A program made the position numbers and the translations under genes. DNA of 64,000 nt. Source: Escherichia phage vB_EcoM-pEK20. Positions 1 through 640 of the stretch are shown here, one piece after another; positions within the stretch are counted from its first letter, which is position 1; each line of letters opens with the position of its first letter. The notes under the pieces are model-generated. The model was not told the DNA's origin, did not search any database, and saw only the letters and a list, made by a program, of their open reading frames with translations. Location: the sequence record MZ868638.1, one strand, 5' to 3'.

Positions 1-306
1 TTTTATTTTAACGAACGTGAAACAGTTATTTCCGATAGGTTAATTAATTCGCTGTATCAGCATGCTGATTATGTCTATTTTCAAAATGAATTCGGACATT
101 GGAAGTTTCTTAAAAACCGTTCCGGGTTAACTAGTTTTGAATACTTTGACCGTAAAGACCTTTTAAACGAAATTCCATTACAACATAGGTTCCAGAAACG
201 CGAATCACTATACTATTGTCGTCATATACCAAATGCTGAATGTGTTGATGAAGTAATTAATCTATGGCGTAGACGTAGAGAACAAATTGATGATATGTCA
301 AAATAA
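1..306 (+). CDS. hypothetical protein, 5' end outside window (C-terminal ~101 aa)
   Basis: Frame 1 open from nt 1 to TAA 304-306; no homolog recognised. Confidence 0.4.
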   Translation, partial: FYFNERETVISDRLINSLYQHADYVYFQNEFGHWKFLKNRSGLTSFEYFDRKDLLNEIPLQHRFQKRESLYYCRHIPNAECVDEVINLWRRRREQIDDMSK

Positions 307-475
307 GAAGCCGGGTCGCTACCGGCAAGTCGTCGGACTGATGTTCCCTGAGTAAGGACTGGTCTTAATAAATCTTTATGATTTGTTAATATCCCCTTAC
401 ATCACAGCAGAAACGGCGCAAAGAATTATCGATTCGAGGAAATATCTTTGCCGTAAGCCGAGTAGCGTTTTTGAC

Positions 476-567
476 GGAACGTTCGGATATGGTCGAGATA
501 TGGCCTTTTAAAAATATTGAGTAGCGTCAACTGCTTAATAACCGGGTTCGAATCCCGGCGTTTCGTA
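476..567 (+). ncRNA. tRNA-like remnant or small stable RNA (non-canonical cloverleaf)
   Basis: T-arm ccggg-TTCGAAT-cccgg at 543-559; 476-482 cggaacg can pair with 560-566 cgtttcg; D and anticodon arms do not fold canonically. Confidence 0.2.
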
Positions 568-610
568 CAAACACTTGCCTTAGTAGGTGGAAACCCCGAC
601 AAGGTATATA

Positions 611-639
611 GCCCCTTCCGAAAGGTTGGGGCTTTTTTG
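611..639 (+). terminator. rho-independent terminator
   Basis: stem gcccc 612-616 / ggggc 629-633 followed by T-run 634-639. Confidence 0.7.
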
Positions 640-640
640 T

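Follow-up and report, generated by a model that had tools for sequence, protein, structure and literature searches.

What does a region of about 330 bp encode that lacks a credible open reading frame (ORF), carries an exact tRNA-type T-arm and ends in a strong terminator? Such a region lies at positions 307-640 of a 64,000-nt stretch of DNA from Escherichia phage vB_EcoM-pEK20 (sequence record MZ868638.1), hereafter called the window. A sequence-only reading of the window had described the region as one structured element, either a degenerate tRNA or a small stable RNA of the kind that T4 carries at this map position. Here, we compared the locus with phage T4 and its relatives. Positions 303-640 are very probably the end of a tRNA operon, which comprises the orthologues of the T4 genes rnaD and rnaC, a conserved trailer and the operon terminator, and in which rnaC is shaped like a tRNA. 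The products of rnaD and rnaC, the species 2 and species 1 RNAs, respectively, have been known from T4 since the 1970s. The finding is therefore already known biology, the small stable RNAs of T4 met again in an RB69/JS09-like phage. What may be added is a secondary structure of rnaC that is backed by covariation, a proposed contact between two of its loops, and the variants found in Pectobacterium phage PM2 and in Marfavirus-type phages.

Identity and genomic context of the locus

The assignment of the two RNAs as orthologues of T4 rnaD and rnaC is based on homology, synteny and covariation. In a pairwise alignment of the window to the T4 reference genome (NC_000866), positions 303-640 align base for base to T4 rnaD, rnaC, the trailer and the terminator. 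The rnaD orthologue, of about 120 nt (about 303-422, plus strand), is 85.7% identical over 119 nt to T4 rnaD (T4s002, 71053-71171). The rnaC orthologue, of 139 nt (about 429-567, plus strand), shares 137 of its 139 nucleotides (98.6%) with T4 rnaC (T4s001, NC_000866 70908-71046). The ends of both genes were taken from the T4 annotation. The remaining segment, 568-640, is 78% identical to the T4 trailer and terminator. The region that had been described as one structured element is indeed structured, but it consists of two separate RNAs and a conserved trailer.

Over this segment, Escherichia phage vB_EcoM_JS09, a Mosigvirus and relative of RB69, shows 100% identity, and by this identity the window is that of a JS09/RB69-like Mosigvirus. 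Matches to the segment are present in more than 800 T4-like phage records. Protein-coding DNA around the locus is 70-84% identical between JS09 and T4, and the 98.6% identity of rnaC hence points to an unusually strong constraint on this RNA.

The order of genes in T4 is 57A, 57B, ipI, tRNA.4/.3/.2, the tRNA genes, rnaD, rnaC and e.8/e.6/e.5, with tRNA-Arg preceding rnaD. In JS09 the order is 57A, 57B, ipI, tRNA.4/.3/.2, ORF151c, tRNA-Met, tRNA-Arg, ORF150c, the non-coding region and genes of the e.6/e.5 type. The two RNAs thus occupy the equivalent place in the tRNA operon, and the suggestion that the region holds T4-like small stable RNAs was correct. As in T4, rnaC follows rnaD, precedes the operon terminator, lies on the strand of the tRNA genes and has the same predicted fold; it differs from T4 rnaC by two substitutions and, owing to ORF150c, in the upstream context of its predicted precursor. 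The rnaD orthologue adjoins rnaC on its upstream side, as in T4, and keeps the 5' hairpin, the closing stem and the internal loops. Unlike that of T4, it has a different apical hairpin, and its 5' end adjoins a stop codon instead of tRNA-Arg. In Mosigviruses, a coding sequence (CDS) homologous to ORF150c has been inserted between tRNA-Arg and rnaD, where the spacing in T4 is 1 nt. Because of this gene, 5' maturation of rnaD must take another route here than in T4.

The 3' part of the homologue of RB69 ORF150c occupies positions 1-306 of the window (plus strand), according to the annotation of the identical JS09 record, and its TAA stop codon is at 304-306. The next ATG-started gene downstream begins at 683. 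Between these borders there are only ORFs of 25-58 amino acids, all of which start with TTG or GTG, which agrees with the description of 307-640 as devoid of a credible ORF. Compared with shuffled sequences, the predicted fold of segment 296-645 has a z-score of -5.65, and none of 100 shuffles equalled it. Folded alone as single sequences, rnaC and rnaD have z-scores of -4.17 and -3.69, respectively.

Secondary structure of rnaC

Homologues of rnaC were collected from a phage collection, IMG/VR and metagenomes. The resulting 25 distinct sequences represent about ten genera, namely Tequatro-, Mosig-, Gapriver- (VR25), Karam-, Kanagawa-, Winkler-, Moon-, Gelderland-, Marfa- and Mosugukvirus. RNAalifold was run on the first 19 of these sequences, and base pairs were counted on the sets of 19 and of 25; the counts given here are for the 25 sequences. 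The comparison supports a model of rnaC as a four-way junction that resembles a cloverleaf, composed of an acceptor-like stem, a T-arm and two long arms. The positions of the 48 modelled pairs are paired in 91.7% of cases, a share that drops to 35-49% once the 3' partners are displaced by 1-3 columns. Compensatory changes on both sides are found in 30 of the 48 pairs, and none of 500 shuffles reached the observed values. The ends of the stem derived from covariation are located within 1-2 nt of the annotated ends of mature T4 rnaC. A covariance model of rnaC has a single match in the 64 kb, at 428-569, with 159 bits; the known homologues score 113-165 bits, while real tRNAs such as tRNA-Ser score 19-24 bits.

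The acceptor-like stem is formed by the 5' strand CGAUUCG (430-436, plus strand) and the 3' strand CGUUUCG (559-565). It corresponds to the 7-bp acceptor pairing that had been proposed as possible, with five Watson-Crick pairs and a tandem U.U mismatch (433/562 and 434/561), and it is backed by covariation. At position 432/563, for example, G-C (16 sequences) alternates with A-U (8), and one sequence has G-U. The 3' strand belongs to an element at 559-569 (plus strand), which continues with an unpaired U566 at the discriminator position and with ACA (567-569) in the place of CCA. This tail reads UACA in most phages, including T4, and UCCA in the Klebsiella Marfavirus type and in PM2.

The long 5' arm (437-506, plus strand) takes the position of a D-arm. 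Its basal stem pairs AGG (437-439) with CCU (504-506) and is followed by three more helices. Seventeen of its 20 pairs show compensatory changes, and in the PEi20, Klebsiella, Melville and NM4.3 phages the sequence of the arm is wholly replaced while its pairing and shape are kept. An A-rich single-stranded linker, UUUAAAAA (507-514, plus strand), separates the two long arms; it is unpaired in the consensus, and its AAAAU core is conserved. The long 3' arm (515-540, plus strand) has a 10-bp stem (515-524/531-540), with compensatory changes in 9 of the 10 pairs, and a loop CGUCAA (525-530). The T-arm (542-558, plus strand) consists of a 5-bp stem and the 7-nt loop UUCGAAU; in the model it is stacked next to the acceptor-like stem. 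It had been described exactly, as CCGGG at 542-546, TTCGAAT at 547-553 and CCCGG at 554-558. Its stem covaries between G-C and U-A; at the middle pair, U-A (14 sequences) alternates with G-C (10), and one sequence has U-G. The loop is UGCAUGC in Entb_45-like phages and UUCGGUC in PM2.

Two other candidate elements in this sequence were rejected. A pairing of AUUCGA in the 5' segment with UCGAAU of the T-loop is not kept where the T-loop is UGCAUGC. As a -35 box, TTGACG has no consistent -10 box in type-B sequences, and no plus-strand promoter-like site was found.

The most divergent homologue found is that of PM2 (L170, about 528-669). A pair of the basal stem of its 5' arm has changed from A-U to U-A with compensation, and its acceptor stem comprises seven canonical pairs, AGGUUCG/CGAAUCU, in which the U.U positions are U-A. 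With its canonical 7-bp acceptor and its encoded UCCA, PM2 rnaC is a natural "repaired" variant. In the Klebsiella Marfavirus type (L030/L031/L041/L044), a conserved structured stretch follows a tRNA-like 3' end about 80 nt upstream of rnaC.

The same comparison bears on whether the locus encodes a small protein. Mechanical ORFs of 42-58 amino acids exist at 383-511, 426-602 (minus strand) and 517-660, and in many GenBank records the locus is covered by CDSs labelled "hypothetical protein". The three ORFs all start with TTG, and indels of 1-2 nt among the homologues break their frames; within rnaC, such indels in the linker rule out coding. Moreover, substitutions track RNA pairing and not codon positions, and arm sequences are swapped across genera with the fold kept. 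We consider an encoded protein to be extremely improbable.

Almost as improbable is a decaying tRNA pseudogene or a non-functional spacer, although tRNA finders see no complete cloverleaf and rnaC has been lost in some relatives. A relic would not be expected to keep 98.6% identity to T4 next to genes with 70-84%, nor compensatory changes in 30 pairs across about ten genera, and T4 makes stable transcripts from the orthologous region (PMC9697503). Of the two possibilities named in the sequence-only reading, the small stable RNA is upheld by orthology with T4, while the degenerate tRNA is contradicted by the conservation and by the compensatory changes.

A proposed contact between the two long arms

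At the tip of the 5' arm, the loop UUGACG (471-476, plus strand) is complementary to the loop CGUCAA (525-530) of the 3' arm. The six positions that would pair form standard pairs in 99.3% of the cells of the alignment, that is, in all but one, over the 25 sequences. The two loops are almost invariant, whereas the stems beneath them vary freely. In three sequences of the Klebsiella Marfavirus type both loops have changed together, from A-U to G-C, to give UUGGCG/CGCCAA, and PM2 keeps the loop core GACG/CGUC. Loops 471-476 and 525-530 thus probably form a kissing loop, by which the long arms would be joined. We rate it as probable and not as proven because the evidence consists of one independent double change and of conservation. 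Such a contact would lock the body of rnaC and leave the acceptor/T-arm unit exposed.

rnaC as a tRNA mimic

How closely does rnaC resemble a tRNA? Its ends form an acceptor stem (430-436/559-565), and a 5-bp T-stem with a 7-nt loop is found at 542-558; this loop has the canonical sequence here, from which some homologues depart. The consensus has no anticodon arm of 5 bp and 7 nt with a conserved anticodon, and there is instead an arm of 10 bp with a 6-nt loop. The lack of a conserved anticodon arm argues for a tRNA mimic and not for a decoding tRNA. Judged by its comparative record, rnaC is a selected mimic and not a decaying tRNA gene, because it is conserved at 98.6% and because its helices are kept by compensatory changes. 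The earlier statement that there is no complete cloverleaf is true as far as tRNA finders are concerned, but rnaC itself folds into a four-way junction that resembles a cloverleaf and whose arms are oversized.

ARAGORN found no tRNA genes in the whole 64-kb window. A permissive search of positions 1-1500 of the window with Rfam 15 (E ≤ 10) gave five matches, all far below the gathering score. The best match within the tRNA clan is tRNA-Sec at 474-566, with 16.6 bits versus a gathering score of 47 and an E-value of 4.9. That no match reaches threshold simply reflects the lack of a curated family for these RNAs. The sequence-only reading had named the lack of a covariance-model hit among its refuting outcomes, a test that would have misled.

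The closest resemblance is to class II tRNAs and to tRNA-Sec (Rfam clan CL00001). In common with these, rnaC has an acceptor stem formed by its ends and a T-arm of 5 bp and 7 nt, and the long hairpin directly 5' of the T-arm is reminiscent of a long variable arm. Weak matches were obtained in both directions, of the rnaC model to real tRNA-Ser and of the tRNA-Sec model to rnaC. In contrast to them, rnaC has no D-loop and no anticodon arm, has a tandem U.U in the acceptor and ACA for CCA, is 139 nt long and falls below all tRNA thresholds. In lacking an encoded CCA, its ACA tail resembles tRNA-Pro and tRNA-Ser of T4, which are also without encoded CCA (PMC11143913).

Orthologues of rnaC have been given conflicting labels by tRNA finders: Lys (phage 55, G4507), OTHER (G9062), Met (PG7-like), Phe (Pet-CM3-4) and none here. 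Such labels, from public records and ARAGORN, are on the 3' two-thirds of the rnaC orthologues in L001 (3225-3318), L035 (8491-8585), L032 (976-1071), G4507 and G9062. Together with the CDSs placed over the locus, these inconsistent labels look like systematic misannotations.

Some GenBank records treat rnaC as a real tRNA (tRNA-Lys, tRNA-Met or tRNA-OTHER), which would make it a decoding tRNA of unusual structure. The T-arm and the acceptor stem are present, tRNAscan or ARAGORN calls a "tRNA" of 94-96 nt in some orthologues, and tRNA-Sec weakly matches 474-566. The anticodon differs from call to call (Lys, Met, Phe or OTHER), and none is made in the window. They also need an internal strand at 474-481 that is not conserved, while covariation supports the true 5' end. 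Given also the missing 5-bp/7-nt anticodon arm and an Rfam score of 16.6 against a gathering score of 47, we regard decoding as highly improbable. The acceptor pairing that underlies the tRNA-Sec match and some of the tRNAscan calls (474-481/559-566) was itself rejected: a G.U pair becomes A.C in Entb_45, the segment is absent in PEi20-type phages, and it is the 5'-terminal strand that covaries.

Non-decoding tRNA mimics that recruit tRNA-processing or tRNA-binding proteins include the tRNA-like domain of transfer-messenger RNA (tmRNA), the module of the bacterial Y-RNA YrlA and mammalian mascRNA. By analogy, rnaC would act like these RNAs, with an acceptor/T-arm unit that recruits proteins without decoding. 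It differs from them in having no sequence or covariance-model similarity to them and in a body of two long arms with a loop-loop contact.

Distribution among phages and bacterial genomes

In phages of the Karam-, Kanagawa-, Moon-, Gelderland- and Winklervirus groups, rnaC is located in the middle of the tRNA array, for example as Trp-rnaC-Gly or Met-rnaC, with a spacing of a few nt. The Karamvirus and Kanagawavirus groups have rnaC without rnaD. The opposite arrangement, rnaD without rnaC, is found in Dhakavirus IME08, in VR20 and in Providencia phage PSTCR6, between tRNA-Arg and tRNA-Ile. As each RNA is found without the other, rnaC and rnaD are separable modules.

A metagenome scan added only Marfavirus-like and Entb_45-like copies of rnaC, plus chance matches. 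A loose pattern search of contigs of bacterial genomes returned at least 120 loci, and among the matches listed none exceeds 17.5 bits against the rnaC model; these are chance matches, and the absence of rnaC from bacterial genomes is not thereby established. A BLAST search for a host origin or a host target gave no match to the locus on either strand of 5,426 E. coli genomes. Elsewhere in the window, no complementary stretch reaches 13 nt, and the 11-12 nt matches that occur are AT-rich and at chance level.

Processing and possible function

Accumulation of the species 1 and 2 RNAs of T4 has been demonstrated by Northern blot, and they are classed as late-accumulating (PMC9697503). They come from a tRNA-operon transcript of about 1.75 kb (PMC12685909, PMC9697503 and the SegB paper, among others), and transcription in T4 ends after the species I gene (SegB paper). 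The acceptor/T-arm minihelix is a minimal RNase P substrate (PMC11143913).

We propose that the polycistronic transcript would give up rnaC in the manner of a tRNA, with RNase P acting at the 5' end, followed by 3' trimming and possibly CCA repair, because it presents an acceptor/T-arm unit that tRNA-processing enzymes read. A cut of the RNase P type at rnaC would free rnaD as well. The two RNAs would then build up in stable form, presumably protected by their compact folds. According to literature of the 1970s-80s, RNase P cleaves the species 1 precursor.

Beyond its own processing, rnaC might have a role in trans as a tRNA mimic without decoding activity: it would bind or titrate some host factor that reads the acceptor/T-arm geometry of tRNAs, such as a defence or toxin enzyme that targets tRNAs or a processing enzyme; we put this forward tentatively. 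The tRNA region of T-even phages is described as an anti-defence locus, which serves against defences that target tRNAs (PMC13096335). A more specific version, which we hold to be rather speculative, is that rnaC represents a distinct structural class of phage tRNA mimic with a 6-bp kissing loop, which would serve as a decoy or inhibitor of a host immunity or toxin enzyme that targets tRNAs, or of another tRNA-binding factor, and that rnaD would have a related host-specific role. If it were true, it would explain why T4-like phages keep rnaC inside their tRNA (anti-defence) arrays.

Several points weigh against this explanation of rnaC, from its fold to its role. Papers and reviews give the function of the T4 species 1 and 2 RNAs as unknown (PMC12685909, PMC9697503). 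The T-loop is noncanonical (UGCAUGC) in some genera, so that enzymes which read the T-loop may not all recognise rnaC. The 3' tail is ACA here and not CCA, and the annotated mature 3' end of T4 rnaC is ...GUA; for these reasons the addition of CCA to rnaC is unproven. The kissing loop is probable on the strength of one independent compensatory event and of invariance, and rnaC is missing in some relatives, such as Dhakavirus IME08 and Gaprivervirus VR20. Finally, T4 deletions of the whole tRNA region are viable on laboratory hosts, and any role of rnaC or rnaD would consequently be conditional.

The main rival to a mimic that acts in trans is a role in cis only, in which the fold of rnaC and the hairpins of rnaD direct cleavage by RNase P or RNase E and shield the 3' end of the operon from exonucleases, the stable RNAs being by-products. 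Both in T4 and in the window the RNAs close the operon and directly precede its terminator, RNase P is known to act on tRNA-like units, and a conserved trailer and terminator are located downstream. However, in the Karam-, Kanagawa-, Moon-, Gelderland- and Winklervirus phages rnaC is in the middle of the array and not at its 3' end. A processing signal, moreover, would need neither two long arms with conserved complementary loops nor conservation at 98.6%, and the adjoining tRNAs already provide RNase P sites. We therefore regard a role confined to processing and stabilisation as rather doubtful.

The finding is unsurprising, but the comparative model of rnaC makes an old question of function easier to attack. 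The two RNAs have no Rfam family, and their public annotation is inconsistent, as tRNA-Lys, -Met, -Phe or -OTHER, as hypothetical proteins or as nothing at all. The model also permits consistent annotation of T4-like genomes. To a question that is 50 years old, it brings features that can be mutated, namely the acceptor formed with the 5' end, the tandem U.U, the two loops that complement each other and the homologues in which CCA is encoded.

Structure of rnaD

The rnaD alignment comprises 18 distinct sequences and was analysed with RNAalifold. The RNA begins with a 5' hairpin of 5 bp with the loop GUCGCUA (311-327, plus strand), which shows covariation between A-U and G-C. A long irregular stem follows on the same strand, predicted to be closed by 333-339 with about 414-420. 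Six of the 24 predicted pairs in rnaD have compensatory changes. The apical hairpin (about 358-395 in the window) occurs in three unrelated sequence versions in close relatives, while the 5' hairpin, the closing stem and the internal loops are constant; from these sequences, the apical hairpin looks like a swappable module. The 3' tail of rnaD is GCGCAAAG here versus GCGCACCA in T4 (AAAG versus ACCA), so that a CCA-like end is not a conserved feature of rnaD.

Two tRNA-like interpretations of rnaD were rejected. The loop CUGAGUA is not an anticodon loop, because GUAAGG pairs with CCUUAC to close the apical hairpin. A permuted acceptor/T-arm mimic does not agree with the topology, in which the 5' hairpin and the 3' tail are at the same end. 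Near the region, a simple terminator scan reported only one site, at 310-326 on the minus strand; it is the 5' hairpin of rnaD read backwards, followed by TTCTTATTTT, and is probably an artefact.

When the T4-like phage BW1 was evolved on the semi-permissive host ECOR34, an identical single-nucleotide polymorphism in rnaD arose in all replicate lines (PMC12685909). It is the only experimental hint that we found of a host-dependent role for these RNAs.

Trailer, terminator and downstream promoter motif

The conserved 3' trailer, ACACUUGCCUUAGUAGGUGGAAACCCCGACAAGGU, has 35 nt (570-604, plus strand) and hardly varies among 13 distinct versions from phages. It is predicted to form either of two small hairpins that exclude each other. 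In phages without rnaC (IME08, L023, L025-L028), the trailer directly follows rnaD.

Segment 610-638 (plus strand) would terminate the tRNA/stable-RNA unit. It is made of a GC-rich hairpin (610-633) with a GAAA loop, followed by a run of six T (T633-T638), and it is conserved in T4 and its relatives. This agrees with the strong terminator described earlier, and a function as intrinsic terminator is plausible on the predicted fold. A simple terminator scan missed it because the hairpin has an internal loop.

The trailer and terminator also bear on whether these RNAs could regulate host or phage mRNAs in trans by base pairing, through conserved loops or through the trailer. Conserved unpaired segments that could serve this purpose are GGACUGA and AGAAA in rnaD, the A-rich linker of rnaC and the trailer at 570-604. 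A Rho-independent terminator with a U-tail is typical of small RNAs that bind Hfq, and some papers speak of "regulatory RNAs" (PMC12685909, PMC9697503). However, the annotated mature T4 RNAs end before the terminator and its U-tail, and the most conserved loops of rnaC are complementary to each other and not free. A classical antisense role is made less likely by the lack of extended complementarity in the window (at least 13 nt) and of any BLAST match in the 5,426 E. coli genomes, although seeds of 7-10 nt may exist. We consider base-pairing regulation to be improbable. As a tRNA mimic, rnaC would not act by pairing with mRNA.

The T4 late-promoter consensus TATAAATA is found six times in the window, always on the plus strand, and this total count is at chance level. 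One copy, at 640-647, adjoins the terminator on its downstream side and precedes the ATG at 683 by 36 nt.

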